64,000 nt of DNA, taken from the sequence record MH791411.1, one strand, 5' to 3'. The notes beneath the pieces are model-generated. The model did not search any database. It saw only the letters and a list, made by a program, of their open reading frames with translations, and was not told the DNA's origin. Positions 4,561 to 43,525 of the stretch are shown here, piece by piece. The position numbers were made by a program, and so were the translations under genes. The DNA comes from Escherichia phage Ecwhy_1. Within the stretch, counting starts at the first letter, position 1; the number at the start of each line of letters is the position of its first letter.

Positions 4561-6189
4561 TTAAGACTCCACTACTACGTTAGTCCATACACCATTGACT
4601 AATTTTTGTGTATATCTCCAACTATAACCTTCAACGTGTGTACCTGAACTACCATTTACTGAAATAAACAACCCATCCAGTGTAGCACCTTCTGGTGCAT
4701 AGATCCAAGAAGAATCAGGAACACTTCGCGTAGATGTTCTTTTACTTAAACGAACATCTTGTACAGCACCTAGTGTTAAAGTTACGTTACCGTTTGCATC
4801 AGCGTTGTTACCGTTAATAGATCTGACGATGTTTTTACTAGCAACAGTTGCTATGTTTCCAGAAATAGACAATGATGCACCAGTTACTGATGGAGCATAA
4901 AGTACACCAGAAGAGTTAATTGTAACTTCAGAACCACCATTACTTCTCAAACGTAATGTATTTGTTGATGAACTGTGATAAATTGCTGCACGTTCAGTAG
5001 TTCCTGCCGCGTTACGGAAGTAAAGTACTAATGAAGTATCATTCGAACGAATTGTTGCACTGTTTGCGATACTTAATGAACCAGACATTGTATCACCAGT
5101 TTTCAGTACATAACGGGTGTTTGCAACTTTTTCACTCAATGCAACGTTAGACTCAGCAATGTTATATAAGTATGCCACATTAAAGTGTGGTACGTCAATA
5201 TTGCTAATTCCGTGGGTATGTGCTTGTCCACTACCAACGGTATTGGTTGAACCACTGAAACTATGCACGTGATCAGGTGCTTCGTTAATGTTATTAATTA
5301 CAGTTGGGATTCCGTTGTCGTTACTGGATGTTAACGCATTAAGACCACTTCTGTCCATACCTTTTAGTGCTTGACTATGACCATGACGACCAGCAGCACC
5401 AGTAGTTCCACTGAAACTAAATGAGTGCGGTGGAAGTTGAGCAATTGATATCGCAGTCCCACTAATTGATGCACTACTTGCAATCACACTATCAGTTTTA
5501 GTTACGCCTGATGTGGTAATGCCTTTCAAGTATGCTTCTTGGTTAAGATTTGGAACTTGTTTTGTGATTGTACCATTTTCACCAACCCATTGCCACCACA
5601 TTCCATCAGCAAAACACCAACCATCAGAAGTTTTCCACGGAGAACCTTGTGAACCATTACGACCACTTTGACCATTGGTCACACCAGACATCTGTTCACG
5701 AATACTAGCAACAGTTTGTCCAGAAGTCAATGAGTACTGGGTAATTGCACCAGGCTTCATTGAAGTATAAAGACCTGTTGGGCCAGTACCGCTACTTGAT
5801 GGAATAGGGAATACGATATTTAAATTCGTACCACTAATGCTCGCACTTGGAACAGCACTACTACTATATGTTACTGTTTCAACTTTTAAATTCAGTTTAC
5901 GGTTCACTTCATCGAGTGAAATACGGATTGGTTCAAGAATTGTATCAGTATCGTATACTGCAATCCAACTTGTCCCGTTGTGGTATTTTAACACCAACTC
6001 ATTTCTATCAAATACCATAGCACCTTGCTCACCTGCTGGCAATGCCTGTACTGGTAAAATGACAGAAGATGAATTAAAACGAATAGGTCTTGGATTAGTT
6101 GGTGTACCACCAAGCACTATTAGTTCTAAAGATCCATTAGCACCAGTACTAGTCATAGTATCCAGTGGGTTATTAAAACTTATGCTCAT
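4561..6189 (-). CDS. tail fiber / receptor-binding-like protein with His-x-His motifs (542 aa)
   Basis: Ser/Thr/Gly-rich fibrous composition; HSFSFSG, HGHSQ, HVHSFSG and HTHGISN motifs resembling the HxH metal-binding tips of T4 gp12/gp37; AATAAATA late-type motif about 35 nt upstream of the ATG. Confidence 0.55.
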   Translation of the reverse strand: MSISFNNPLDTMTSTGANGSLELIVLGGTPTNPRPIRFNSSSVILPVQALPAGEQGAMVFDRNELVLKYHNGTSWIAVYDTDTILEPIRISLDEVNRKLNLKVETVTYSSSAVPSASISGTNLNIVFPIPSSSGTGPTGLYTSMKPGAITQYSLTSGQTVASIREQMSGVTNGQSGRNGSQGSPWKTSDGWCFADGMWWQWVGENGTITKQVPNLNQEAYLKGITTSGVTKTDSVIASSASISGTAISIAQLPPHSFSFSGTTGAAGRHGHSQALKGMDRSGLNALTSSNDNGIPTVINNINEAPDHVHSFSGSTNTVGSGQAHTHGISNIDVPHFNVAYLYNIAESNVALSEKVANTRYVLKTGDTMSGSLSIANSATIRSNDTSLVLYFRNAAGTTERAAIYHSSSTNTLRLRSNGGSEVTINSSGVLYAPSVTGASLSISGNIATVASKNIVRSINGNNADANGNVTLTLGAVQDVRLSKRTSTRSVPDSSWIYAPEGATLDGLFISVNGSSGTHVEGYSWRYTQKLVNGVWTNVVVES

Positions 6190-6230
6190 GTATAAATCCC
6201 TTTAATGATTAATATATACTATATTTATTA

Positions 6231-6539
6231 CTATAGCAAGTCGTTTTCCATATCGTCAAGAACAGAATCGACGATGTTCGCTGCTATCTTCTTAGGCATC
6301 TTGAACCACTCGGTGTTAGGTTGCCTTACTGCGTTCATTTGTTTTAGTCTTTTGTGAATTTCTTTCTCTGCTAAACGTGCATCTTCAAAGTGTACTTCAT
6401 GGTATACCACAAAATCTCTAAAAGGTGTAGCAGTTTGATATGTCCTTAAACGTTCTGTCATTTCAGATTTACTGGTAAATCCTATCTTAACATAATCAGG
6501 CCACGCATCATTTACTATAACATAACATATCTGTGACAT
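6231..6539 (-). CDS. T5orf172 / GIY-YIG-like domain protein (~102 aa)
   Basis: CYVIVND...YVKIGFTS...RLRTYQTATPF...EKEIHKRL...EWF matches the T5orf172 (MUG113) pattern as recalled; ATG at 6539 has a GGAGA SD (track ORF starts 15 nt earlier). Confidence 0.6.
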   Translation of the reverse strand: MSQICYVIVNDAWPDYVKIGFTSKSEMTERLRTYQTATPFRDFVVYHEVHFEDARLAEKEIHKRLKQMNAVRQPNTEWFKMPKKIAANIVDSVLDDMENDLL

Positions 6540-6578
6540 AGAAAATATCTCCATCAGTAATATGAAGATATTTATTAA

Positions 6579-6929
6579 TCAAGTAATTCGGAAATTTACC
6601 CCAGCATCAATTAGGCGTTGGAATGGGTTTTGTGGCTCGAATTCAGAAGGAGTTTTTGAAATGTTCAGTACTGGAGCATCAGCATGTAACTTTGACATAC
6701 GTTCTTTGTACTTATCTAAGTATTCTTCATATAACATATCTTCAGTGTTACTATCAAGTATGTCTTCAATAAATGAATCAATACTATAGTCCAGTCTATC
6801 ATCATTATAATACAAAGTTTCACTAGCTTCATCATAACCAACTAAAGTCCCGTATGGAACGTTAATCTCAATTTTTGAGTACTGACTCTTTAAGTACTCT
6901 TCTTTCTTAAAAATGTATACAGTTAACAT
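6579..6929 (-). CDS. hypothetical protein (~116 aa)
   Basis: Track ORF begins with TTG at 6938; the ATG at 6929 is preceded by TAAGGAG. No recognisable domain. Confidence 0.45.
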   Translation of the reverse strand: MLTVYIFKKEEYLKSQYSKIEINVPYGTLVGYDEASETLYYNDDRLDYSIDSFIEDILDSNTEDMLYEEYLDKYKERMSKLHADAPVLNISKTPSEFEPQNPFQRLIDAGVNFRIT

Positions 6930-6952
6930 CCGTGTCAACTCCTTATGGTTGT

Positions 6953-7876
6953 TTACTTAAAAGTATTTACGATTTCCAAAACACTTTCAAGATACTTAGC
7001 ATCAAAAGTTTCAGTAAATCCTGATGGTAACTCTTCAGTACTTACAACACCACTTTCAATGTATTGCTTGATGAACTTTTCCAATAATAATGGTTTGTTA
7101 CCATCCTCAAAGTAACGTTCTACCAGTACAGTGTGTTCAAAATCAGAATCACGGCTTTGTTCATGAATTCGCCTCTTCATGTCACCAGTAATTCCGTATT
7201 TGTAAACGACTTTTGAGTTATTAGATAGTTTTTGTACATAGAAATATCCAGGCTTTGATGGTTGATAACCATACTCACCACATGATGGACATCCTCTTCC
7301 TGCCATATGAGATTTGGGTATTTGTTTAAAGACACCATGTTCAGGACAAATAATATCCACATGTTCATCACTAGTCTTGTAATCCACCAAGCTATAATCA
7401 TACTTATGGTTATGGATAGGCGACACAAGTTCAATGAAACGTTCAGTACTTCTTCCACCTTTACCAGAACATATTCCACAACTAGTTTTTCCTTTTAATA
7501 ATGTTGCGGCTGATACTTCCCAATCATGAACATCATTTGGATCGTTGTGACATGTTACCGTCACTTTCCCATTACAATCACGTTGTCTTTTGTAGATAGT
7601 TTTTTCAAATGACAATGTTGGATGAATTGTTTTTACTTTCTCTATGAACGTTTCAGTTGTGTATGCTGTATTTTTTTGGCAAATATTACATCCCTTTGCA
7701 GTAGATCTTACAATTTGCATAGGAGTGATTTTGAAATAATGACCACCTTCCACACAATAAAGTTCAACCTGTTTATGTGCATTTATGTATACCATTTTAT
7801 CAAACAAATAAACCCCAGTGCCATATTTTTCATTCACCGTATTGATAAATTTTTCTTCATTTGGATTCATTGTCAT
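6953..7876 (-). CDS. zinc-ribbon repeat protein with C-terminal T5orf172/GIY-YIG-like domain (307 aa); putative homing-endonuclease-like nuclease
   Basis: Three tandem ~55-aa modules each ending in C-x2-C (GCNICQK, CGICSGKG, GCPSCGEYG) with conserved FIE...KYDYS...ICPEHG; C-terminal GYFYVQKLS...YKYGITGDMKRRIHE is GIY-YIG/T5orf172-like. Confidence 0.55.
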   Translation of the reverse strand: MTMNPNEEKFINTVNEKYGTGVYLFDKMVYINAHKQVELYCVEGGHYFKITPMQIVRSTAKGCNICQKNTAYTTETFIEKVKTIHPTLSFEKTIYKRQRDCNGKVTVTCHNDPNDVHDWEVSAATLLKGKTSCGICSGKGGRSTERFIELVSPIHNHKYDYSLVDYKTSDEHVDIICPEHGVFKQIPKSHMAGRGCPSCGEYGYQPSKPGYFYVQKLSNNSKVVYKYGITGDMKRRIHEQSRDSDFEHTVLVERYFEDGNKPLLLEKFIKQYIESGVVSTEELPSGFTETFDAKYLESVLEIVNTFK

Positions 7877-7904
7877 TTCTCTTCTTCATTTATAATGTAC
7901 GCGT

Positions 7905-7933
7905 ATTATTACACAAAAAATGTGACATGTCAA
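7905..7933 (-). promoter_or_regulatory. sigma70-like promoter (TTGACA-N17-AATAAT) for the nuclease/fiber cassette
   Basis: Minus-strand TTGACA at 7933-7928 and AATAAT at 7910-7905, located between the capsid-gene terminator and the 6953..7876 start. Confidence 0.4.
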
Positions 7934-7935
7934 CA

Positions 7936-7966
7936 CAAAAAAGAAAAGGGACTCCGAAGAGTCCCT
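7936..7966 (-). terminator. rho-independent terminator after the major capsid gene
   Basis: GGGACTC-cgaa-GAGTCCC hairpin flanked by an A-run on plus (T-run on minus) and TATTGTTTTT on plus. Confidence 0.65.
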
Positions 7967-8009
7967 ATTGTTTTTAATTTCTTGATTAAATCTTTTAAAT
8001 CGATTACAA

Positions 8010-9185
8010 TTACATGAAAGTAACGTTTTTGATAGCGATTTTGCTGTAGTAGTCAGCAGCGTTACCAAGAGAAGAAGTACTATCAGTCAATTGTACATAA
8101 CCATACCTGGTAAGGAAAGTTGTGACCAATTCCCCAGTGTTAGGGTCCATTACAGTACCGGAAGCCATTAGTGGGATGTATGGGCAATAGAACACACCAG
8201 CATCAGTTTCAGCATTACCTTTATAACCAATCAAAATGTCCTCGACATCTGAGGCATACGTATCGACAAAAATACGCATGGTGCTGTTTAGAGTACCAAC
8301 GAATTTAACGTTAGTTGGAGCTTCGAAAGTACCTTCAGTAGTACGTGCAAAACTAGAAGTAGTTGCAGACTGTAGAATGGTTAGAGCGGTTGGAGAAACA
8401 ACAGCCCAGTTCGCAGCACCACGTTTGGTACGACGAGCAACTTCGTTCGCTTGACGGTTGATTAGGGTAGCTAGAGCAGCGTGCTCGTCACCAACGAAGG
8501 TCGCAACACCAGTAACTTTAGATTGGTCATAAGTTACAGCAGCAGCACCAGGTAGTGCACGTAGACGGCTTAGTAGCTCTTGGTCGATTTCAACGGTAAC
8601 TTCTTGAGCGATTGCAGCCATTAGTTCAGCTTCAACATCGATACCATGTTGGGATTGTGCATCTTGTGCAGATTCAACAGTCCAACGTGCAGATAGACGA
8701 CGAGATTTCGCTTCAACAGTTTCACGTAGGATACGGATGTTAACGCGACGACCCATAGTACCTTCTAGTTGGCTAGTAGGAGCAGCTTGTGGGTTGCTGT
8801 TGTCTGCGTTTAGGTCACCAGTATAAGACTTAGCGATTTTGTATGGAGAAAGCATTTCTTCACCAGCGATAACACCAGGAGCGTTGTCAGCATATTGAAC
8901 ACGTAGGGTGTGGATCTGACCAACTGGGCCAGTCATTGGCTGAACACCGATGATTTCGTTAGCGATTACGGTTGGCATAACACGACGCATAATTGGTAGA
9001 ATCACTTTGTTTAGAGTAGCGATGTTACCAGCGGTGGTTGCACCAGAAGTAGCAGATTCGTTTAGCATTAGTTTACGATGGTTATCAAGTACGGTTTCCA
9101 TTACGGACTTACGAGTACCTTGTAGACCTTCAACTAGTTTCTCTTTAACTGCTACCCATTTGGATTCATTTAGTAGTTGTGACAT
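8010..9185 (-). CDS. 23: major capsid protein (T4 gp23 family), 391 aa
   Basis: IANEIIGVQPMTGPVGQIHTLRVQY and NIRILRETVEAKSRRLSARWTVESAQD align to T4 gp23 IAFDICGVQPM... and ...VIEAKSRQLKAAYSIELAQD as recalled; AAGGAG SD. Confidence 0.85.
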   Translation of the reverse strand: MSQLLNESKWVAVKEKLVEGLQGTRKSVMETVLDNHRKLMLNESATSGATTAGNIATLNKVILPIMRRVMPTVIANEIIGVQPMTGPVGQIHTLRVQYADNAPGVIAGEEMLSPYKIAKSYTGDLNADNSNPQAAPTSQLEGTMGRRVNIRILRETVEAKSRRLSARWTVESAQDAQSQHGIDVEAELMAAIAQEVTVEIDQELLSRLRALPGAAAVTYDQSKVTGVATFVGDEHAALATLINRQANEVARRTKRGAANWAVVSPTALTILQSATTSSFARTTEGTFEAPTNVKFVGTLNSTMRIFVDTYASDVEDILIGYKGNAETDAGVFYCPYIPLMASGTVMDPNTGELVTTFLTRYGYVQLTDSTSSLGNAADYYSKIAIKNVTFM

Positions 9186-9220
9186 TATTATCTCCTTAAA
9201 GATGTTATATTCGTTTTTCA

Positions 9221-9278
9221 GTATGATATTATTTATAGAACTGAAAAATTTGATTATTAAAATGCTTTAAAATGTTTA
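9221..9278 (-). repeat. ~55-bp late-promoter cassette, copy A (second copy at 11978..12034)
   Basis: GTATGATATTATTTA...ACTGAAAAATTT...TTAAAA-GCTTTAAAA-GT is shared almost verbatim with 11978..12034. Confidence 0.6.
9230..9237 (-). promoter_or_regulatory. T4-type late promoter TATAAATA upstream of the capsid gene
   Basis: Exact TATAAATA on the minus strand about 45 nt upstream of the capsid ATG. Confidence 0.6.
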
Positions 9279-10391
9279 TTTTTTATTGATACCAGAAAGA
9301 ACATCGAGTTCTTTTAGGAATGCCATATCGTCAGCGGTCATTTCTTCGCTTTCAACAATAGCCTGACGGTTGCCAGTGATTACTTTACCTTCTGCAAGAG
9401 TTCTCTTAGCGGAAGACTGAACTGCTTGACGAGTGGTAGCAGATTCATTTACTTTAGTACCGTTAAGTACTGACTTATGGTACTTGCTGAAATCGTCTTT
9501 AAGCTTTTCTGTAGGAGAAGTAGCTAGAAGGGATTCCATAATTTGTTTCTGTTGTGTAGTTAGTGGCTTAACTAGTTCAGACATAATCGCATTACGAGCT
9601 TGTGAATCTTCCATAATACGTAGTTTGGTTTTAGCAGCTTTAACTTCACTTACAGTTTCATTTAGTTCTTGTTTAACTTGTGCAATTTCGTCTTCTTTAG
9701 ACTTAATTGATTCAGTTAGGGAACGTAGTAGTGAATTCTCATTAAATTGTTTGACATTAAACTCTTGAGCAAACGCTTCAAAGATTTTACGACCAAACAT
9801 ATTTTGTTTTGCTTCAACAAGATCTTCTTTCAAAGCGTATAGGTTTTTCTGAGTAGTTTCTGCAATGTATTTAGCAGCACTTTCAGAGGTACGTTTGATG
9901 AAGTTGTTACGTGCTTCAGCAATTTGACGGGAGCCTTCAGCTAGTAGTTTTACGCGAGTTTCAACTAGTTGACGTTTCTCGATGTGGAATTCTTTTAGCT
10001 CTTCTGCTAGGATACCGTTAGAGAAATTAACGAATTTACCCATGCATTCTTGAAGATGCTTACGTTCTTTACGCATTTGTTTAACTTCTTCAGCCAAAAC
10101 AGAGTTAGAAAACGCAGAGAAATTACTTAGGGTTTTACGGAGAGTTACACGATCTTCTACAAGACGTTTTTTCTCTTCATATACTGCACCCATTTCTTCA
10201 GCGATAACTTGAGTAACCATAGTATTTAGACCTTCGGTTAGCTCGGACAAATCTTGTTTGTAGCGGCCTTTCATTTCTTCACGCATTTCTGCGGCAAGTG
10301 TGTTTTTTTCTTCATTCCATGCTTCCTGAATTAGCTGTTTTGCCTCATCAGAAAGAGATGATTCTTTTAGAAGCTTTTCTAATTTAGACAT
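9276..10391 (-). CDS. 22: prohead scaffold/core protein (gp22-like), 371 aa
   Basis: Strongly charged, predicted coiled-coil composition (E/K/L/Q-rich); sits between protease and capsid gene as in T4; AAAGGAGAG SD. Confidence 0.6.
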   Translation of the reverse strand: MSKLEKLLKESSLSDEAKQLIQEAWNEEKNTLAAEMREEMKGRYKQDLSELTEGLNTMVTQVIAEEMGAVYEEKKRLVEDRVTLRKTLSNFSAFSNSVLAEEVKQMRKERKHLQECMGKFVNFSNGILAEELKEFHIEKRQLVETRVKLLAEGSRQIAEARNNFIKRTSESAAKYIAETTQKNLYALKEDLVEAKQNMFGRKIFEAFAQEFNVKQFNENSLLRSLTESIKSKEDEIAQVKQELNETVSEVKAAKTKLRIMEDSQARNAIMSELVKPLTTQQKQIMESLLATSPTEKLKDDFSKYHKSVLNGTKVNESATTRQAVQSSAKRTLAEGKVITGNRQAIVESEEMTADDMAFLKELDVLSGINKK

Positions 10392-33507: not shown

Positions 33508-33553
33508 ATCATAAATAAATCAAATGAATGAACGAATTATATGGAGTCCAAAA

Positions 33554-36500
33554 ATGACTAATAATTTTAAGTTTCAACCTACACAGATGGCTGAAGCAGT
33601 ACAGAAGAAGCTTTTCATAAAAAGATTGCCTGAGTGGATGCAAGGCTTAGAAGATATTCAGAAAGTCAGTGATGATGTTATCCAACAATGGTTTAATCCG
33701 GCTGAAAACGAATTAGTTGACGGCTACATTGGTGACATGGGTTCTCCGGCAGCAGCAGGGAACATCTTCTTACACGAGTCAACAGTCGCACGTCAACTAT
33801 ATCAGTTGTCCACTGCGTATGTCTCAAGAAATGATGACTCCAGCATTCGTTCAATTCAATTTTATGATGATCTAGTTGGCTATATGAATCATTACGGTGC
33901 ACTAACCGAAAATGAAAGCCGTTTGTTTAATGGTAAGTTCTATTCATGGACCCCACCAATTAACCCAAATAAAATGAACAACTACAGTTCATACCTATGG
34001 GATTCCAAGAATAGCTATAATATCACAACTCCAGATTATATTGTAATGGAACGTGGTGCAGAAAATGGTAACACTTGGTCACTACAAAACTTCTGGTACA
34101 CATTAGGTGAAACTTTAGAAGATGGTACTATCCTAACTGAAGAACTAATGCAAGATTCCCGTTTTGTTCGTGCTCGTGCACCAATTATCGAATACAATAA
34201 AAATATCGAACTAATGAACTACGGTACTAAATTCCGTGGGACAGTTGATTTGTTCTCTGATATTATTAAACCTGAAGATATCGTACAAAAAGATATTAAC
34301 AGCGGTATACGTATTGATGGTATTATTCCACAAGATGGTATGCGTATTCTTTTCACCAGTATTGGTAACAATGGTGAAAACAACCGAATTTATAAAGTAT
34401 ATGTTAAACGTATGCAAGATGGAACACGTGTGTATGGTCTAGCATTAGATCCAGACGAAGAATCTGAAAGCCGTCCGAGTGGTGAACCACAAGATGGTGA
34501 CGTAGTTCTTATTATCAAAGGTAATGAATTTGGTAACAGTTCCATGTATTGGGACGGTTCTCATTGGATTCAAGCACAGTCTAAAACTTCTGTGAACGTA
34601 TTTCCACAATTCCAATTGTATGACCGTAATGGTGTTAAACTAAACAACACTACTACCTATCCATCAAGTACTTTTACTGGTTCTTCACTATTTGGTTTTA
34701 AAATTAACTATAATTATGCAACTGATAGCGTTTATGGTTATAATATTGAACTAGGTGATTACAATTATTACACATATGAGAATTTCCTACAATCAACTCG
34801 TTATACTTACGAGCATTTGGGTGTGGAAGTTGAAATTGATGGACTATATTACTATAACGTAATTGGTGAAGGTAATACAATGAACCTAGAAACTGATTGG
34901 GTTCGTAGTACTGAATACTCCAAACAATATGTTAAACAAACTCCACAGGTTGAACGTACAGTAATGTTCCGCGTGTTCAGTACTGTTTATGACATGGAAA
35001 GTTTCAAAGACCCAGTTGAAGGAATGTATGCTTATGTAATTGAAGTTGACAGAACTTATCAATATTACAAAGCAGAACGTGAAACATATCTTGATTGGCA
35101 TGTTATCGTTGGTGATGGGGTACAAAGCGTTAAGTACAATCATACATTTGAATTGGCACAAAAAGTACTAGATAATTCTGATGATATTATCGAACTAGTT
35201 GTTGATGGTGTGGAAATAAAAGAATACACCAAAACTGTAGTTAATAATCAAGTACAAAGTATTACAATTGATAGCTCTGTTGATTTGGATGAAGATTCTG
35301 TTGTACAAATCAGAACTTATAGTAGCACTATCACTCCTAATAAAGAGTTGGGTGCATATGAAGTTCCAATTAACCTACAAAATAACCCATATAATTCAAA
35401 CATTGAATACATCAACCAAGGTGATTACACCCTGCACTTCCAAGATATTATTCAAAAGAATATTACATCTGGTTCTGCTGATGACTTTAACAATTACGAA
35501 GAACGTTTGGCTGCTGGTTTGGTTAATAATGGTGTAGGCACTAAAATTATTCAAAACGAAGCGTCCATGTTACCACTAATGGCACATACCGCTAATGAAG
35601 ATATTGATTTGTTTGAATCAATCATGTTTATGCAAGCAGAATACTTCCGCTTCATTAACAAGTTCAACACTCAAATGCTTCGTTTGTATGAAGAAGACCC
35701 AAGTGCTTTTCTTGGTAATAGTGCATCAAACATCGTAGATGCGATTCTAACAGCTATTAATATGGGACGTGATAGTACATTCCCATTCTACTATGACAAC
35801 GTTGCAAGCACTGCTGGGTTTATTCGTGCATTTGTCCCACCAACTCCACAGTTCTTGGGTATTTTGCAAGCTTATACACCACAAAAAGCAACATTCTTAA
35901 CTGCTGGTAGTAAATCTAGCTGTTATAATATCAGTCATACTGGTATTATTTCAAAAGCATACCGTGTTATCAATGGTGTTGATAAAATGGATGACGTAGT
36001 TTTTGAATTGGAAAATCGTATCTTTAATAGTATTGATCTTACTTTCAAGGATATTGATTATAAACCAGTACTAAACAGTGAAGACCTATTCCCAACTCCA
36101 TATTTCACTGGTACTGATTATAGTGCAGAAGAAAAGAAAACTCTATTACTACGTGGTTACATTAACTTCACAGCAACCAATGGCATTAGTAACAGTACTC
36201 ATGATTATGATGCAAATAACTGGAGAACTTGGAACTATACTGGTAGTTATTATGTTGTTGATGGTCAACGTACTGAAATTCCTGCTCGTGGTTCATGGCG
36301 TGCAATCTATACTGACCAATATGGCACATATCGTCCAGCAACCCATCCGTGGGAAATGATGGGCTTCTCTCAACGTCCTACTTGGTGGAACCAAGAATAC
36401 GAACCAACCGCAGTTCAAGTTGGTGAACGTGAGGGTGATGTTGTTTATGTGTATGAAGCACTAGTAATGAATGAAAATGGTGATTTGGTCCCAAGTGGAT

Positions 36501-39500
36501 TGTGGGATATTGATGGTACTATCGGTGATAGCAGTACTGGTACTATTTTGTCAGGTGAACGCCGTGGTCAATATGACAAATACAAGCGTTTCGGTGTACA
36601 GCCATTTAAAATCACTAAGACTGGCGAGAAAACCAGTACTGGTATTGATATTTGTGAAGTTGAGTATATTGCACCTGAAGTTTTAGGTCTTGTTAGTGGT
36701 AATTTAGATCATCGTGCAGAACCGTGGTCTTATGGTGACATGGGTGACATGGAATTCACTTACATGAACACTGCGATGTTTGCTTATGACCAAATGCTTC
36801 TTCTATACAAAGCAAAACCAGCACAGTTTGCAAACTATTACTGGGATACCCGTAATGATAACCTTAAACCAGTTTATACTGATGGTTCACAGTTCCTTTA
36901 TGGTGAAACTCGTAAGCGTCTAAACTTTGACAGTACTACATTAGTACATGGTGAGAAAAACACCCGTACTATCGGTTATCAAATGTTTGTTAGTGACTAT
37001 TTGATGTATCAGAATAAGAACATTACCACCAAATACGGTGACGTTGTTCGTTCTTCTTATGTCAATGTCGCTCACAAAATTGGTGGCTTTACTAAAGCAG
37101 ACCAATTGACATTCACTGCTAAATCTTTCGGTTTGATTTCACAAGAAAACCAAACTATCGGTCTAGTTCGTTCCAATAACATTCGCGATGAGCAAATGAG
37201 TGCAGTAAAAATTACTTGGAATGGTAGTGCATATCAAATTGATGGTTATGATTTAGTTGGTGCTAAATTTAAATATAAAATTCCAGTTAAAAATGGAAGA
37301 AAAGTAACTCTTAAATTGGAAGACAGAACTGTTGTTCATTACAATGAATGGAAATCTGAAGGTACATTAGAATATGGTAAAATATTCAATACATACCAAG
37401 AAGTTTATACTTTCATTTGTGGATATGGTGAATATCTAAAAGAACATGGCTGGATTTTTGAAGATGTAAATGATAGTGGTACTCAACAAGACTGGACAAC
37501 TATTGCTAAAGACTTTGTTATTTGGAGTCAGAATAATTTAAGTACTGGTGAGTTCATCTCCTGCACTCCAAGTGCAGCTAATGCTAAATTTGGTGCGGAT
37601 TTTGGTTCAGTTCAATCTGTTACACAGAATAGTGGTGGTGTTTGGTCACTACTCGATGATGAAAACCAAGGTATCCGTCAATATGAAATCGAAACTTCGC
37701 GTATCGGTAACGTATTCACAGTGAGAACTACATCTGAATCACAAAAACGTATGGCGTTGATTCGTTTGAGCCTAAGTTCATATGAACACGCAGTTGTTTT
37801 TGATGATAAAACTATCTTTGGTGATTACATTTACCAACCAACTTATGGTGCTATTCAAGAATTGATTAAAATGTATGGTTACATTACTGGGTCATGGACT
37901 GGTCGCCTACAAGCACCTGGTTTCATTATCCTAGAAGCAGGAACTTTACCATCATTTGAAAAATTAGTAACTGATTTTGAATTATATTATAATAGTGAAA
38001 CTCCTGTGAGTGATGTTCAGCTTCAAGAGTTATCAAATCACTTGATTGGCTATCAAACTCGTGATTATCTACAACGTATGATTAGTAGTGATGTTAGTCG
38101 TGTTGATTTCTATAAAGGATTCATTCATGACAAAGGTACTAACCAAGTAATGGAAAAAGTACTACGCGTTTCTAAATCTTACGACACTGATGAATATAAA
38201 GCACTTCAGGAATGGGCATTTAAGATTGGTACTTATGGTAATATCAATGGTAAGAAAAATCTACAATTTAAACTAATCAATGACCAATTTAAACAACAAC
38301 CACAGATGGTTTCGTTTGATGTTAATGCTACATCAAATGGTACTGGTAATGGTATTGTTTATTACGGTGAACAAGGGGTTGACTCACGCTGGATTACTCG
38401 TCCAAATGGTAAGTTTTCATTCCCAATGCGTAGTGGAAGAAGTGAGAATATCCAACTTCCAGACATTGGTCCTGTAACACTAGATGAAATTTCATACGTT
38501 ACTAAAGATTTCAGTACTGCATATAATGATCGTATCAATTATATGAATAACAGTGGTGAAATCCCAGATTCTGTATGGATGTTTAAAGATGGTAATGATT
38601 TGTGGAATATTTTCGAACTAGTAGACACTGAAGTTGAGATGCTCTCTATCGTTCCAATTGAAAATACCGATGTATATGCAGAACAATTCTGTAAAGTAAC
38701 TCTAAGTGATGATATCCCACTAAATGATGGTGATTATTATTACTTTGTTGATGAAACTAACTTTATGCCAGATACATTGACTATAGAAAGTCAATATTAT
38801 ACTGCGGGTAATGACCCTAGAGTTATGGTAGTTCCGTTTGACACTTCAATCACTATTGACTTCACTGATCCTGATACTCGCCCACGCTTGTATCGTTATG
38901 TTTCACGATTCAGTACTGAAGAGATGCGTCAGGAATACATTGACAGAAAATATAGTTTTAAAGCTCCACAAAGTACTTTGTTTGACCGCCCAACCACATA
39001 TGATGAGCGTACTAACATTACTGCGTTGTACCTAAACGTGTTTGACCCAATCAACGGTGTTATTCCTGGTGCAGCGATGCAGAACGTTACCTACACATCT
39101 CCAGTTGACCCAGCACAATACAACAGCAATGGTGAATTGATTCAAGCATGGGGTGCTGATAAAGTTGGTCAGGTTTGGTGGAACACCAGCACTGCTTTCT
39201 ACTTAGATTACACTCGTGCAATCTATGATGCTGATGGTAATGTGGATGTTGATGCAACAAATGAATATAAACGTTATAACTGGGGCAGATTGCTACCGCA
39301 CAGTACTGTTGATGTTCTTGAATGGGTATGTTCACCAGTTGAACCATATAACTGGGACAAATACTGCAAAGACGTTGCTAACAAAAATAAAAACAACACT
39401 ATGTACCTACCAAGCGGAACCGCATTGGAAGATAATTATAGTACGTTCTTAGAATATGATAGCACAACTGATACTTATGTTACAAAATACTATTTCTGGG

Positions 39501-42500
39501 TTCGTGATACAATCTATGTACCACCATTGCATTCCAGAACTAAATCTTGTACTGATATTGCTCGTATTATTAAAGAACCAGCACAGCTTAACATTCCTTG
39601 GTTTGCACCAATCAATGAAAGCTCGTTCATTCTAAGTAATATGCAATTTGAAGTCAACGATGACACAAGTATTTTAACTGTTTCTTATTACATGGATAAT
39701 ACTGAAGTTATTAAACATGACCAGTATCAATTATGTAAAGAAGGTGATAGCTATAACTTCAATCCATCAATCTGGACTTCTATGTGGAATTCTATGATTG
39801 GTCAAGAAACTACTGAATCAGGAACTGTTATTGATTTACTATATCCTTTAGTACCAAACGGTTTAGGTTCTAATAAGACTTGGTTCCAAGATGTAATTGA
39901 AGCTCGTAGAAACTTTGTAGAAAGTGCAAATAACTATTATCGCTCACAGAATATAACAACTAACACTGTTCTAATGGACGAAGTGTTTAATGTTAAAACT
40001 ACTGAAGTTAACCCGAATGAAGTATCATATCGTGTACTAACTTACAATAGTGAATTAGTCATTGCACCTGAAAGTGACAAGTTCAAAGAAAACGACGCAG
40101 TACTAGTAAGTACTAGTGGTGTATTACCTAACCCACTATCAACTAGCTCTGTATATTTTGTGCATATTGATGCTAATGGTTATATTCATCTAATGAATAG
40201 TCCATCAAGTGCTGGTAGTGTGGTTACCATTACATTGGAAAACCGTGGTGAAGGTCAACAGAAAATGATTAAACAATCAGACTATGTTGAAGCACTAGGA
40301 ACTTCATTGGACATGACCCAGTACTGGTCACTAGCAGATTGGTATGATATTGGCTACGATAAAAATACTGCATATACACAAGAATCCAGCCTAGAAGATG
40401 CAAACACTAAGAACTATCAAGTTGGTGACATTATCAGAATTACAGATGTTGATGGCATCTGGACATTGTACATTAAAGCACAATCACGTGATTCAGTTTA
40501 CTGGAAAGCAATTGGTCGTGAAAATAGTACAGTTGAATTGAATGATATGTTATACGCTGACTATACAGTTCGTGATGCTAATGGTTCGTTGAGTAATCGT
40601 GAGATTAACGTTCGTAAAGCACTAGCTTTATTGAAGAACTCATTCGACTTACATCAGAGTGAAATTGTGTTTGATATGGTTAAGTATGTTCACGTAGAAC
40701 AAAGCGTTGTTGATTGGGTATTCAAAACATCTTACATTTATATTGTAGGTTTAGAACAATCATTAGTACAGAACTATTCCAACGACAACTTGATTAATCA
40801 AATCGTTGAGTACTTTGAAGAAGTTAAACCATATAGAACTAAGATTCGTTCCCAGATTGAACAGAAAACTTCAGATGATGATTTAATTAAAGGTTTGTGT
40901 AATGATTTAGATCCTAATGGCTATATATTTGCAGATGGGACTTGGGTTAAAACGGAAAAAGACATTTGGGATTATGAATATGCTCAATTCAATGAGGTAA
41001 CTCAACGTTGGGAGCAAGTTGGTGAATTGCCAAGTGATTTCGTAACACCTAATCGCCGTTTCCAAGAAATTGATGTTATCATGCACTACGACAACACTCA
41101 ATGTAAACCAAATGATAATTTGGCAAGTGTTGATGTATTGGAAGAAGTGAATAAGAAATATCAATCTAATGCACAAGATGTTGTTAGTAATTTTGAATTA
41201 CAACGTTACAAATATACATTCCCAGAATACAGTGATGAAGATTTCGACCTATTGGTTGCTTATCAGATGCAATTGTATTACCCAGAATTGAACGTAACTC
41301 TAGGGATTGCTTACGGTGTTAACCAATGGTATGCAGACCATGCAGATGATTTGGTAGCAACCGCAGAATTCACAGAAACGTTGAATCGTGTATATAAAGA
41401 ATCAACACAAAATGAAATGTTTAATGACGTAAATCATTATGTTCAGTATAACACACTCTCTAACCGTTTGAAATTGTACACAGGTGCAGATGATGAAGTA
41501 ATTCATGATGAGGTTGGATGTGGATTTAGTGGGTTAACCTATGATGATAATCCAAGCACCAGACTACCGTTTGGTTATGCATCCAGTACTGATTATAACT
41601 TTGGTTACTTTGAAGTTAGTAGTGAGTTGTATAAAAAGTATGTTTCTTTAATTAAAGAAAACAATACTACTGCAACTGATGATGAAGTTAGAATTATACT
41701 TGAAGTTGAATATGGTGTTTATTCATATCGCCATGTAGATGAAGATGGAAATCAACGATTCTACAATGACGCAATTCATGTATTGTCTGGTATGCGTGGT
41801 TTGTATGACAAAGATGCTACCGACCATTATGAAAAGGCTGAAGAAATACTAAGTAGAATGCCTATTGATATTCATGCATTTACTATGATGCCACGAAAAT
41901 ATGTTTATGTTAATGTTAATGGTGTATACGAGAGTATCCCAGATGACCAAAGCATTGATGATTTCATGGAAGACAAATTCATAACTGACGGTCAACTAGT
42001 TCAATTGGCAGAAATAAATCTTGATGACTTACCTCTTGATAGAAATAACCCAATGTACAGTGATTATCAGCACATCCTAGATAGCATCACCGATGCTAAG
42101 TACTACGATGATATGAATGCATTTGATAACCTAGCACTTGAATCACAAACTTCCGAGTTAAAATGGGAAGTTGAAGGTGACGAAGTAGATCCGTACATAA
42201 TCGACATTTCTGATATTAACCCATCAGGAAGAAAGATTGGTCAGATTCGCTTCACAGTTGATGGTTATGGATTCAATAGTGTTTCACTAGTTCAATTGAG
42301 AGACAATAGTAGATATAAAACTGAAGGTATGGTTATCATCAACCCTTATAAAACAACAGAAGCAATTGTTAGTATTCCTTCTTACGCTAAGATTGAAAAT
42401 GATATTAGTAAATCATACAGTAAGTATGATGAAAAATACTTCTATAAAATTAAATCAATTGTTAGTGATACAGAAGCTGAAGTAATTGACAATACCCTAT

Positions 42501-43525
42501 CTGATGGTGATAAGGTTATGATATTCACAACTGATGGTGAAGATTATGTGAGATACCAAAACAATGCATGGGAAACCATCTTGAGTGTATCAAAAATCAA
42601 AACTGACACCACACCAACCTTGTACACAGTAAGAAACACTGCGAACGGAACTGTAGAACTACTAGATAGTACTGGAGTTGTACTTCGTTATGATAACATC
42701 ACTAAACAACAACAGAATGAACCAGCAATACCTCTAGCATTGAACATCGTTCGTATTAGAACCTTTGCTGATCCAGAATTCTTGGTTGATGGTGTTAAGT
42801 TGTATGAAACAAATAGAAACTATGCTATCGACGCAATGAACTATGAAGTATTCTACGACACAACACTATACGGTGGTTCTTATAATGATGGAATTACACC
42901 AGATGACGTTGATGTTTGGGTAGTGTCTAACGAGATATTTGAAGTTGATGGTGTTACCATTGATAACGGATATAACTTACCAATTACTGGTGCAGGTGTT
43001 CTTAGTGAGTTAGTGAGAACCAAAATGACTGATAGTGTGGAAATTAACGTGTTCGAGTATGATGTTGGTATTATTCAACCAGTACTGAATACTGAAGGGG
43101 TATGGGAATATGCATATCCACTAGTTAGTGATACATATATTGGTGTAGTTGGTGGAACCGTAACTAACATTACTGCTATCAGTGAAGAAAATACTACTTA
43201 TGTTTCACAACCAGATTCAGTTAGTCCATATAGTGTTACTAATAATGTTCTATCTGGTGCTGGTGCAAGTATGAATGATATTATTTCTCTTGGTTTTGAA
43301 AAAGTTGAAGTACGTTTTGCAAATAACTTACTCCGTGGGGTAATGTATAGTGCAGAACACGACTTTAAAGAGAATGTGACATATTCATTTAATGGCTTGA
43401 ACTTAGGTAAAGTTAATTTACTAAAACGTTATAGTGTTAACAGTTATCCAATCGAACTATCTGTTTACTCCGATAGTTTGCAAATAAGTGGTACTGACAT
43501 TAAAAATCTATTAGAAGTTAAATAA
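33554..43525 (+). CDS. giant virion protein (~3323 aa), probable baseplate wedge (gp7/gpI-position) or fiber-network protein
   Basis: Uninterrupted 10-kb ORF; start taken at the second ATG with GGAG SD; CATAAATA late-type motif upstream; non-repetitive composition; position after gp6-like. Confidence 0.55.
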   Translation: MTNNFKFQPTQMAEAVQKKLFIKRLPEWMQGLEDIQKVSDDVIQQWFNPAENELVDGYIGDMGSPAAAGNIFLHESTVARQLYQLSTAYVSRNDDSSIRSIQFYDDLVGYMNHYGALTENESRLFNGKFYSWTPPINPNKMNNYSSYLWDSKNSYNITTPDYIVMERGAENGNTWSLQNFWYTLGETLEDGTILTEELMQDSRFVRARAPIIEYNKNIELMNYGTKFRGTVDLFSDIIKPEDIVQKDINSGIRIDGIIPQDGMRILFTSIGNNGENNRIYKVYVKRMQDGTRVYGLALDPDEESESRPSGEPQDGDVVLIIKGNEFGNSSMYWDGSHWIQAQSKTSVNVFPQFQLYDRNGVKLNNTTTYPSSTFTGSSLFGFKINYNYATDSVYGYNIELGDYNYYTYENFLQSTRYTYEHLGVEVEIDGLYYYNVIGEGNTMNLETDWVRSTEYSKQYVKQTPQVERTVMFRVFSTVYDMESFKDPVEGMYAYVIEVDRTYQYYKAERETYLDWHVIVGDGVQSVKYNHTFELAQKVLDNSDDIIELVVDGVEIKEYTKTVVNNQVQSITIDSSVDLDEDSVVQIRTYSSTITPNKELGAYEVPINLQNNPYNSNIEYINQGDYTLHFQDIIQKNITSGSADDFNNYEERLAAGLVNNGVGTKIIQNEASMLPLMAHTANEDIDLFESIMFMQAEYFRFINKFNTQMLRLYEEDPSAFLGNSASNIVDAILTAINMGRDSTFPFYYDNVASTAGFIRAFVPPTPQFLGILQAYTPQKATFLTAGSKSSCYNISHTGIISKAYRVINGVDKMDDVVFELENRIFNSIDLTFKDIDYKPVLNSEDLFPTPYFTGTDYSAEEKKTLLLRGYINFTATNGISNSTHDYDANNWRTWNYTGSYYVVDGQRTEIPARGSWRAIYTDQYGTYRPATHPWEMMGFSQRPTWWNQEYEPTAVQVGEREGDVVYVYEALVMNENGDLVPSGLWDIDGTIGDSSTGTILSGERRGQYDKYKRFGVQPFKITKTGEKTSTGIDICEVEYIAPEVLGLVSGNLDHRAEPWSYGDMGDMEFTYMNTAMFAYDQMLLLYKAKPAQFANYYWDTRNDNLKPVYTDGSQFLYGETRKRLNFDSTTLVHGEKNTRTIGYQMFVSDYLMYQNKNITTKYGDVVRSSYVNVAHKIGGFTKADQLTFTAKSFGLISQENQTIGLVRSNNIRDEQMSAVKITWNGSAYQIDGYDLVGAKFKYKIPVKNGRKVTLKLEDRTVVHYNEWKSEGTLEYGKIFNTYQEVYTFICGYGEYLKEHGWIFEDVNDSGTQQDWTTIAKDFVIWSQNNLSTGEFISCTPSAANAKFGADFGSVQSVTQNSGGVWSLLDDENQGIRQYEIETSRIGNVFTVRTTSESQKRMALIRLSLSSYEHAVVFDDKTIFGDYIYQPTYGAIQELIKMYGYITGSWTGRLQAPGFIILEAGTLPSFEKLVTDFELYYNSETPVSDVQLQELSNHLIGYQTRDYLQRMISSDVSRVDFYKGFIHDKGTNQVMEKVLRVSKSYDTDEYKALQEWAFKIGTYGNINGKKNLQFKLINDQFKQQPQMVSFDVNATSNGTGNGIVYYGEQGVDSRWITRPNGKFSFPMRSGRSENIQLPDIGPVTLDEISYVTKDFSTAYNDRINYMNNSGEIPDSVWMFKDGNDLWNIFELVDTEVEMLSIVPIENTDVYAEQFCKVTLSDDIPLNDGDYYYFVDETNFMPDTLTIESQYYTAGNDPRVMVVPFDTSITIDFTDPDTRPRLYRYVSRFSTEEMRQEYIDRKYSFKAPQSTLFDRPTTYDERTNITALYLNVFDPINGVIPGAAMQNVTYTSPVDPAQYNSNGELIQAWGADKVGQVWWNTSTAFYLDYTRAIYDADGNVDVDATNEYKRYNWGRLLPHSTVDVLEWVCSPVEPYNWDKYCKDVANKNKNNTMYLPSGTALEDNYSTFLEYDSTTDTYVTKYYFWVRDTIYVPPLHSRTKSCTDIARIIKEPAQLNIPWFAPINESSFILSNMQFEVNDDTSILTVSYYMDNTEVIKHDQYQLCKEGDSYNFNPSIWTSMWNSMIGQETTESGTVIDLLYPLVPNGLGSNKTWFQDVIEARRNFVESANNYYRSQNITTNTVLMDEVFNVKTTEVNPNEVSYRVLTYNSELVIAPESDKFKENDAVLVSTSGVLPNPLSTSSVYFVHIDANGYIHLMNSPSSAGSVVTITLENRGEGQQKMIKQSDYVEALGTSLDMTQYWSLADWYDIGYDKNTAYTQESSLEDANTKNYQVGDIIRITDVDGIWTLYIKAQSRDSVYWKAIGRENSTVELNDMLYADYTVRDANGSLSNREINVRKALALLKNSFDLHQSEIVFDMVKYVHVEQSVVDWVFKTSYIYIVGLEQSLVQNYSNDNLINQIVEYFEEVKPYRTKIRSQIEQKTSDDDLIKGLCNDLDPNGYIFADGTWVKTEKDIWDYEYAQFNEVTQRWEQVGELPSDFVTPNRRFQEIDVIMHYDNTQCKPNDNLASVDVLEEVNKKYQSNAQDVVSNFELQRYKYTFPEYSDEDFDLLVAYQMQLYYPELNVTLGIAYGVNQWYADHADDLVATAEFTETLNRVYKESTQNEMFNDVNHYVQYNTLSNRLKLYTGADDEVIHDEVGCGFSGLTYDDNPSTRLPFGYASSTDYNFGYFEVSSELYKKYVSLIKENNTTATDDEVRIILEVEYGVYSYRHVDEDGNQRFYNDAIHVLSGMRGLYDKDATDHYEKAEEILSRMPIDIHAFTMMPRKYVYVNVNGVYESIPDDQSIDDFMEDKFITDGQLVQLAEINLDDLPLDRNNPMYSDYQHILDSITDAKYYDDMNAFDNLALESQTSELKWEVEGDEVDPYIIDISDINPSGRKIGQIRFTVDGYGFNSVSLVQLRDNSRYKTEGMVIINPYKTTEAIVSIPSYAKIENDISKSYSKYDEKYFYKIKSIVSDTEAEVIDNTLSDGDKVMIFTTDGEDYVRYQNNAWETILSVSKIKTDTTPTLYTVRNTANGTVELLDSTGVVLRYDNITKQQQNEPAIPLALNIVRIRTFADPEFLVDGVKLYETNRNYAIDAMNYEVFYDTTLYGGSYNDGITPDDVDVWVVSNEIFEVDGVTIDNGYNLPITGAGVLSELVRTKMTDSVEINVFEYDVGIIQPVLNTEGVWEYAYPLVSDTYIGVVGGTVTNITAISEENTTYVSQPDSVSPYSVTNNVLSGAGASMNDIISLGFEKVEVRFANNLLRGVMYSAEHDFKENVTYSFNGLNLGKVNLLKRYSVNSYPIELSVYSDSLQISGTDIKNLLEVK

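Follow-up and report, generated by a model that had tools for sequence, protein, structure and literature searches.

A probable T5orf172-family homing endonuclease with three zinc-finger modules beside the major capsid gene of an Asteriusvirus-like jumbo coliphage

Results

Gene and locus

We analysed a 64,000-nucleotide stretch of Escherichia phage Ecwhy_1 (sequence record MH791411.1), hereafter the window, and a candidate homing endonuclease gene that lies beside its major capsid gene. The gene is a complete open reading frame (ORF) on the minus strand (6953..7876, stop codon included) that encodes 307 amino acids (aa) and matches PHROG 681; it lies where the initial annotation of this DNA had placed it. 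The surrounding genes are all on the minus strand as well. Upstream are a scaffold-like gene (9276-10391) and a gp23-type major capsid gene (8010-9185; Pfam Gp23, E 9.5e-90), and downstream follow a gene for a 116-aa protein (6579-6929; PHROG 15724, no Pfam match), a stand-alone 107-aa T5orf172 gene (6231-6554; Pfam T5orf172/MUG113) and a tail-fibre gene (4561-6189). A tRNA scan of the window found none.

A nucleotide search with positions 6000-9300 gave 99.1% identity to Escherichia phage WPEC5. The region matches 72 phage records, foremost among them the group of 121Q, PBECO4 and G17, jumbo coliphages of about 350 kb in the genus Asteriusvirus. Judged by these matches, the source is an Asteriusvirus-like jumbo coliphage. 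Public assemblies hold the identical 307-aa protein (P0001), the WPEC5 annotation starts the ORF two codons further in, and the records of most relatives label the gene 'hypothetical protein'.

Zinc-finger array

The N-terminal part of the protein is built from three homologous modules, each about 63-70 aa long and all encoded on the minus strand: R1 (aa 4-70; 7667..7867), with the candidate metal ligands C41, H46, C63 and C66; R2 (aa 71-140; 7457..7666), with C109, H117, C133 and C136; and R3 (aa 141-203; 7268..7456), with C177, H180, C196 and C199. The full-length AlphaFold2 model has a mean predicted local distance difference test score (pLDDT) of 91 and a predicted template modelling score (pTM) of 0.48, values that together indicate well-folded beads whose mutual orientation is undefined. 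It shows a long helix, a β-hairpin and a short helix three times, the helices beginning at residues 5, 74 and 144; in R1, helix 5-18 is followed by strands 37-41 and 46-50 and by helix 52-56. Each module has four conserved candidate metal ligands, contributed by a hairpin knuckle and a C-x2-C motif, and the modelled hairpins fall at the predicted places. A homologue search retrieved 338 proteins at E<=1e-5, and across the 42 of them that we aligned all nine cysteines are invariant. The fourth ligand of each module is the histidine on the second hairpin strand; one homologue has a cysteine at the H180 position, an exchange expected of a metal ligand.

The whole protein scores above the Pfam cut-off for DUF4379 (26.4 bits, cut-off 24.5), a family that Pfam describes as a 'probable treble clef zinc finger', with weaker matches to DUF723, MUG113 and T5orf172. 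Scored alone, R1 matches DUF4379 at aa 29-68 (16.3 bits) and R3 matches DUF723 (19.1 bits) and DUF4379 (13.9 bits), all sub-threshold, and R2, the most divergent module, whose hairpin carries a 6-aa insertion, has no Pfam match. R3 is the canonical form (KYDYS...CPEHG.F...GRGCPSC) and also matches PHROG 4605 (E 1e-15). Among the 42 homologues, Pfam detects DUF4379 in 36, DUF723 in 18 and the CapR homology domain (PF21817) in 9, and the CapR model matches none of R1, R2 and R3 of the window protein. The initial annotation had called the repeats zinc ribbons; the label should instead read treble-clef-like CapR/DUF4379/DUF723 zinc finger. In the survey of Barth, Dunham and Seed 2023, 200 of 229 (87%) T5orf172 homing endonucleases have CapR, DUF723 or DUF4379 fingers ahead of the nuclease domain (PMC10448857).

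We compared the modules with each other at three levels. Pairwise Smith-Waterman self-alignment of the single sequence (2000 shuffles) relates R1 to R3 (z=5.1, a score reached by 2/2000 shuffles) and, weakly and through the N-terminal helix only, R2 to R3 (z=3.6), and leaves R1-R2 unsupported (z=0.5); from one sequence taken alone, the triplication is not fully proven. Profiles of the three repeat column blocks of the 42-homologue alignment, compared with hhalign, gave probabilities of 99.5% for R1-R2 (E 7.5e-23), 99.8% for R1-R3 (E 1.8e-30) and 99.6% for R2-R3 (E 1.7e-24), and each repeat set against the C-terminal domain as a control gave 0.1-0.2%. At the profile level, the three modules are clearly homologous to each other. 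The three consecutive repeats proposed in the initial annotation thus hold up by profile and by model, and the self-alignment check that it proposed gives strong support to one pair out of three. Its repeat length of about 55 aa describes the conserved core (about 53-60 aa) and not the period (about 67-70 aa), and its consensus, with KYDYS and C..HG.F, fits R3 and the wider family, whereas R1 and R2 lack KYDYS and keep the scaffold only. A repeat search within the gene at the DNA level returned only short, chance-like matches, which rules out recent tandem DNA repeats as the origin of the modules and indicates that the triplication is old. A hidden Markov model (HMM) of the three repeats, run against all six-frame ORFs of the window, found only the ORF at 6953-7876.

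By analogy with CapR, the three-module array presumably binds DNA in a sequence-specific manner. The homologous CapR domain has been described as binding DNA directly at the promoter of the ICP1 capsid operon, an interaction that was examined with Cys-to-Ser mutants (PMC8096241). The array of the window protein (aa 3-216) matches PHROG 559 'HNH endonuclease' (E 8e-26), and in one homologue a Vsr-like PF04480 domain takes the position of T5orf172. An array common to such proteins points to a portable targeting module of several nuclease classes. Pfam found no other DNA-binding domain in the protein, and in particular no helix-turn-helix (HTH). These observations argue against modules that bind protein or RNA or are purely structural, with the choice of target left to the nuclease domain or a partner protein. 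Such a role, for which the I-TevI zinc finger offers a precedent as a distance-measuring linker that is not the main DNA binder, seems to us extremely improbable here.

Nuclease domain

The C-terminal domain (aa 204-307; 6956..7267, minus strand) comprises 104 aa and is predicted to adopt the GIY-YIG α/β fold, with a three-stranded sheet flanked by helices (pLDDT 93 for the isolated domain). Across the 42 homologues, down to about 30% identity, residues Y213, K226, G228, R236, E266, G286 and E289 vary little or not at all. They form the core motif of the T5orf172/MUG113 branch of the superfamily, namely the Tyr of 'GIY', K-x-G for 'YIG', the catalytic Arg about eight residues on, the metal-binding Glu and a distal G..(T)E.F, and the motif residues align with those of ICP1 Gp130, of the SHEFM2K allele described below and of the adjacent 107-aa T5orf172 protein. 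In our own alignment with the known I-TevI sequence, Y213 presumably corresponds to Y6 of 'GIY', K226-x-G228 to the 'YIG' position, R236 to R27 and E266 to E75, with G19 also aligned. A lysine (K226) thus replaces the tyrosine at the 'YIG' position.

Family-level comparisons agree with this assignment. PHROG 681 'endonuclease' matches aa 6-306 (E 2.3e-63) and picks up the adjacent bona fide T5orf172 protein too. Run against the C-termini of P0067 and P0034, two homologues that Pfam labels T5orf172, an HMM built from close C-terminal domains reached 47.6 and 36.8 bits; on ICP1 Gp130/TcgB it reached 60.6 bits. Pfam itself recognizes T5orf172 in 12/42 and MUG113 in 11/42 full-length homologues (E<=0.01; best 9.5e-9). 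An NCBIfam search gave no match, and a phmmer search with the C-terminal domain against all six-frame ORFs of the window returned only the ORF at 6953-7876. The GIY-YIG/T5orf172-like domain claimed in the initial annotation is therefore confirmed by fold and motif, and Y213, K226, G228, R236, E266 and E289, the positions at which an alignment might have revealed lost catalytic residues, are all kept.

The 107-aa T5orf172/MUG113 protein (Pfam E 3e-13 and 1e-12) is encoded two genes downstream and has no DNA-binding domain. We considered it as a close paralogue of the nuclease domain and ruled this out (BLASTP E 4.9; HMM 5.7 bits). Its gene is kept in 14/14 relatives examined, whatever the state of the neighbouring slot, and it could be a domesticated or partner-dependent nuclease.

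Insertion slot and alleles

The gene lies within a mobile cassette of 1009 bp (6930..7938) that is missing from empty-site relatives. Phage fEgEco12 is homologous to the window at 100% over 6000-6929 and at 98.5% over 7939-9300, and 39 bp replace the cassette between these segments; the replacement measures 47 bp in PBECO4 and 38 bp in CMSTMSU. The left edge of the cassette falls exactly at the ATG of the downstream 116-aa gene, and the right edge just beyond the terminator hairpin of the major capsid gene (7947..7966, minus strand; found by a terminator scan and annotated as a terminator in G17 and Munch), a hairpin that is present in genomes with and without the endonuclease gene. Inside the cassette, a sigma-70-like sequence (7905..7933, minus strand; TTGACA, 17 nt, TG-AATAAT) has 11/12 consensus matches and an extended -10 element and probably serves as the promoter of the cassette. 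The 62-bp segment upstream of the ORF is 100% identical to that of G17, and the adjoining first zinc finger (ZF1) is 90% identical.

Between the sigma-70-like promoter and the start codon lies TATAAATG (7877-7900, minus strand), which departs from the T4-type late-promoter consensus TATAAATA at a single base. A gp55-like factor is among the products of the phage. Given this near-consensus late motif and the factor, the cassette may be transcribed both early and late. The ribosome-binding site of the 116-aa gene comes from the cassette in endonuclease-positive genomes and from a short spacer in empty-site genomes.

Comparison of 14 related loci revealed four states of the slot. It is empty (2-47 bp) in fEgEco12, CMSTMSU, PBECO4 and SD-6_S16; it holds a 3-finger allele of 306-309 aa in WPEC5, G17, E9.1, EC.P1 and the window itself; it holds a 4-finger allele of 365-368 aa in 121Q, Turkey3, BF17 and A4; and in TH47 and SHEFM2K it holds an unrelated 332-aa T5orf172 allele with CxxC...CxxC-type fingers and a nuclease domain that is only distantly similar. 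The occurrence of the 332-aa allele in exactly the same slot indicates that several endonuclease lineages compete for one intergenic site. In Salmonella phage Munch and phage EJP2 this site is filled as well. Presence and absence thus alternate at one exact site in otherwise collinear genomes. Every slot state is found in both backbone lineages, whose left flanks differ by about 10-20%, and a related endonuclease gene is detectable at the DNA level in only 27/72 related records. This distribution is incongruent with the backbone and is accompanied by co-conversion-like mosaic flanks, a combination that is consistent with homing and is not proof of it.

One of the empty-site records, CMSTMSU (MH494197.1, UNVERIFIED), has its capsid gene split into several short coding sequences (1173 nt, 5 in-frame stops). 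These breaks are most likely a sequencing or assembly error and not biology.

The slot comparison bears on whether the gene could be a domesticated derivative that is no longer selfish and acts as a sequence-specific repressor of late or capsid transcription, or as a nuclease against satellites or competing phages. The gene adjoins the capsid gene and is preceded by a promoter sequence of early type, CapR-type fingers are known to serve capsid-operon repression (PMC8096241), a T5orf172 nuclease has been co-opted as an anti-satellite weapon (PMC8263062), and homing, as Barth et al. point out, is not inferable from sequence alone (PMC10448857). We nevertheless consider domestication unlikely. 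The gene is dispensable, the slot being empty in many close relatives and filled by unrelated alleles in others, and this dispensability and variety of alleles fit selfish turnover better than a fixed host function. In addition, the intact catalytic residues do not indicate a pure repressor role, and a satellite-derived DNA-binding domain is absent. I-TevI is itself an autorepressor.

Module mosaicism and the capsid-gene flank

The gene itself is a mosaic of modules. Relative to G17, the window gene shows nucleotide identities of 85.8% in the nuclease domain, 100% in ZF3, 89% in ZF2, 90% in ZF1 and 100% in the promoter. Relative to Turkey3, the nuclease domain is 100% and ZF3 98.9% identical, whereas ZF1 and ZF2 are essentially unalignable as DNA (a short stretch only) and share about 45% aa identity; the Turkey3 allele also has one more module, of the CxxC...CxC form, at its N terminus.

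The 3' end of the major capsid gene, which adjoins the slot, is a hypervariable synonymous mosaic tract (8010..8300, minus strand). Counted against the window among phages of its own backbone lineage, these last 291 nt of the capsid gene contain 16-40 nucleotide differences and 0 aa changes, compared with 3-7 nucleotide differences in the remaining 885 nt. The variable sites are grouped in short patches, one of which (about 8067-8114) is at least 91% identical to Turkey3 in 11/13 4-finger records and in 0/43 others. Such linkage of a haplotype to the 4-finger allele is the pattern that would be expected of flank co-conversion or of selected, cleavage-immune target variants. The tract 8010..8300 is a candidate co-conversion tract, a candidate target and immunity region, or both.

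In a further patch (8214-8301), the window looks like the other backbone lineage, of PBECO4 type, and departs from its nearest relative, WPEC5.

Elsewhere in the window, a 3333-aa ORF (33524-43525, plus strand) lies amid baseplate and tail genes and is labelled only 'hypothetical protein' in WPEC5. Another large ORF (55958-60892; 1644 aa) bears the annotation of a colanic-acid-degrading protein.

Discussion

Our data make it probable that the gene at 6953..7876 is a free-standing T5orf172 (GIY-YIG superfamily) homing endonuclease, carried by a 1-kb cassette of promoter and ORF downstream of the major capsid gene. In the mechanism that we propose, the three CapR/DUF4379/DUF723-type modules, arranged like beads on a string, would together recognize an extended stretch of DNA in a co-infecting relative that lacks the allele; this site would lie in the empty slot or close to it, or else within the 3' end of the capsid gene. 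The T5orf172 domain would cut nearby through the conserved Arg236 and Glu266, and recombinational repair from the endonuclease-bearing genome would copy in the cassette together with flanking capsid sequence. Swapping single finger modules between alleles would direct the enzyme to new sites. That the protein binds and cleaves DNA, and where its target lies, is inferred.

Several observations weigh against a homing endonuclease. The window protein stays below the Pfam gathering scores for T5orf172 (PF10544; 16.4 bits, cut-off 20) and MUG113 (PF13455; 18.1 bits, cut-off 22.3), as its single repeats do for their families, and the first GIY-YIG helix does not conserve its His/Tyr, as has been reported for ICP1 Odn. 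A Foldseek search of the PDB with the whole model returned nothing at E<=0.001, the best match being a DUF4379 protein (6yxx_E2, E 0.07), and sequence searches of the PDB with full-length and C-terminal profiles returned nothing meaningful; Foldseek performs poorly with multi-domain models in which the orientation of the domains is undefined. The 3-finger capsid-flank haplotype also occurs in the empty-site phage fEgEco12 and therefore does not single out a target or immunity site. General recombination, rather than repair initiated by the endonuclease, could account for the mosaic flank. Finally, we found in the literature no cleavage, DNA-binding or homing experiment on this protein or on any Asteriusvirus allele. 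As the Pfam scores are sub-threshold, family membership rests on the PHROG 681 match, the HMM scores, the alignment with Gp130 and the other lines of evidence described above.

We also tried to derive the target site from the correlation of haplotypes with alleles. This was partly successful for the 4-finger allele and failed for the 3-finger allele, the haplotype of which is common to fEgEco12.

Some of these points would equally suit a decaying or inactive remnant, with the variation at the slot arising from deletion and ordinary recombination at a permissive site and not from ongoing homing. Homing endonucleases cycle through invasion, decay and loss; sub-threshold nuclease scores and a non-conserved first-helix His/Tyr could be signs of decay, and an empty site with the 3-finger flank haplotype in fEgEco12 is compatible with precise loss. 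Against this, the ORF is full-length, the nine cysteines and six nuclease motif residues are kept in the 42 homologues, the models are of high confidence, and the 14 loci contain no frameshifted copies, barring the one UNVERIFIED record with a broken capsid gene. The same alleles are moreover found on backbones with flanks about 10-20% divergent, which requires horizontal movement. We therefore find a remnant highly unlikely. For the alternatives as a whole, it is dispensability, allele turnover and intact motifs that make them less likely than a homing endonuclease.

The closest known systems are the T5orf172 homing endonucleases of phage ICP1. Like Gp130/TcgB, Gp174, Gp165, Gp121 and Gp53, the window protein combines repeated N-terminal Cys-rich fingers with a C-terminal T5orf172 domain. 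Its similarity to Gp130 extends over R3 and the nuclease domain (BLASTP E 3e-16, 32% identity) and includes the same invariant Y, K-x-G, R, E and E; both genes are free-standing and lie by an essential structural gene, Gp130 beside terL and the window gene beside the capsid gene. The shuffling of modules between alleles is likewise common to the window gene and the set studied by Barth et al., who reported that finger modules recombine within and between genes, that many T5orf172 homing endonucleases carry several fingers as 'beads on a string', that these genes adjoin capsid, terminase or ribonucleotide reductase (RNR) genes, and that 31% lie in capsid-gene neighbourhoods (PMC10448857). The window gene differs from the ICP1 set in its host, an Asteriusvirus-type jumbo coliphage, and in its multi-allelic slot, which may be empty or hold the 3-finger, 4-finger or 332-aa allele. 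Its fingers are of the C-x(2-7)-H...C-x2-C DUF4379/DUF723 type and not of the CapR type (CxxC...CxC).

Two relatives with other functions are instructive. PLE CapR (PF21817), a satellite-encoded repressor of the ICP1 capsid operon, has a related zinc-finger DNA-binding domain, as seen from the 9/42 homologues that match the CapR model and from the CxxC...CxC module with which the 4-finger sister allele begins. CapR has been described as a DNA-binding repressor that descends from such endonucleases, and no nuclease role has been reported for it, whereas the nuclease domain of the window protein looks intact. ICP1 Odn (Gp88) and the window protein both end in a T5orf172 domain that keeps the conserved Arg and Glu and lacks the first-helix His/Tyr, and Odn is the only T5orf172 nuclease for which we found demonstrated in vitro cleavage: it cuts DNA in vitro, and its E180A mutant is inactive (PMC8263062). 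Odn is targeted by a satellite-derived RepA_N origin-binding domain and has an anti-satellite role, whereas the window protein would be targeted by its zinc-finger array and shows the population pattern of a homing element.

With I-TevI and the T4 Seg proteins, the window protein shares a modular, beads-on-a-string build, a free-standing or intron-borne location by essential genes, and, presumably, flank co-conversion. It differs from I-TevI in that its DNA-binding part consists of three tandem fingers, in place of a linker, one zinc finger, a minor-groove helix and an HTH, in that the second Tyr of 'YIG' is the invariant Lys K226, and in that there is no detectable sequence similarity at the level of the PDB. 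The I-TevI-type architecture, with an N-terminal GIY-YIG domain, a single-finger linker and a C-terminal HTH, is not found in the window protein. The initial annotation was right to describe the domain order as the reverse of that of I-TevI, the array being N-terminal and the nuclease C-terminal; the survey indicates that this order is the norm of the family and not unusual (PMC10448857). In summary, the window protein would work like I-TevI and stands outside the I-TevI subfamily.

The architecture has already been described for T5orf172 homing endonucleases, and the window gene is a new example, not a new kind; knowledge of how T5orf172 enzymes are built is unchanged by it. The text and supplements of PMC10448857 that we searched make no mention of 121Q, PBECO4, slurp01, G17 or Asteriusvirus, and the Asteriusvirus slot with its allele series was found neither there nor in the other literature searched. 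A paper on the jumbo phage CBB lists only HNH and LAGLIDADG elements.

A bolder proposal is that the slot is an arena of competing endonuclease alleles, in which finger swaps retarget cleavage among synonymous haplotypes of the capsid 3' end that act as cleavage-immunity alleles and are not just neutral hitch-hikers. We advance it as speculation that is much more likely to prove wrong than right. If each module reads a definable piece of DNA, the allele series could give a recognition code, and this code could serve a compact, programmable zinc-finger/GIY-YIG nuclease scaffold.

For annotation, the gene and its sister alleles can be named as T5orf172-family homing endonucleases with a CapR/DUF4379/DUF723 finger array. 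Our analysis also extends to jumbo coliphages the pattern known from ICP1, in which shuffled-finger T5orf172 endonucleases sit at boundaries of genetic exchange by essential genes, and the slot offers an unusually clean natural series for the study of target recognition, immunity and co-conversion.

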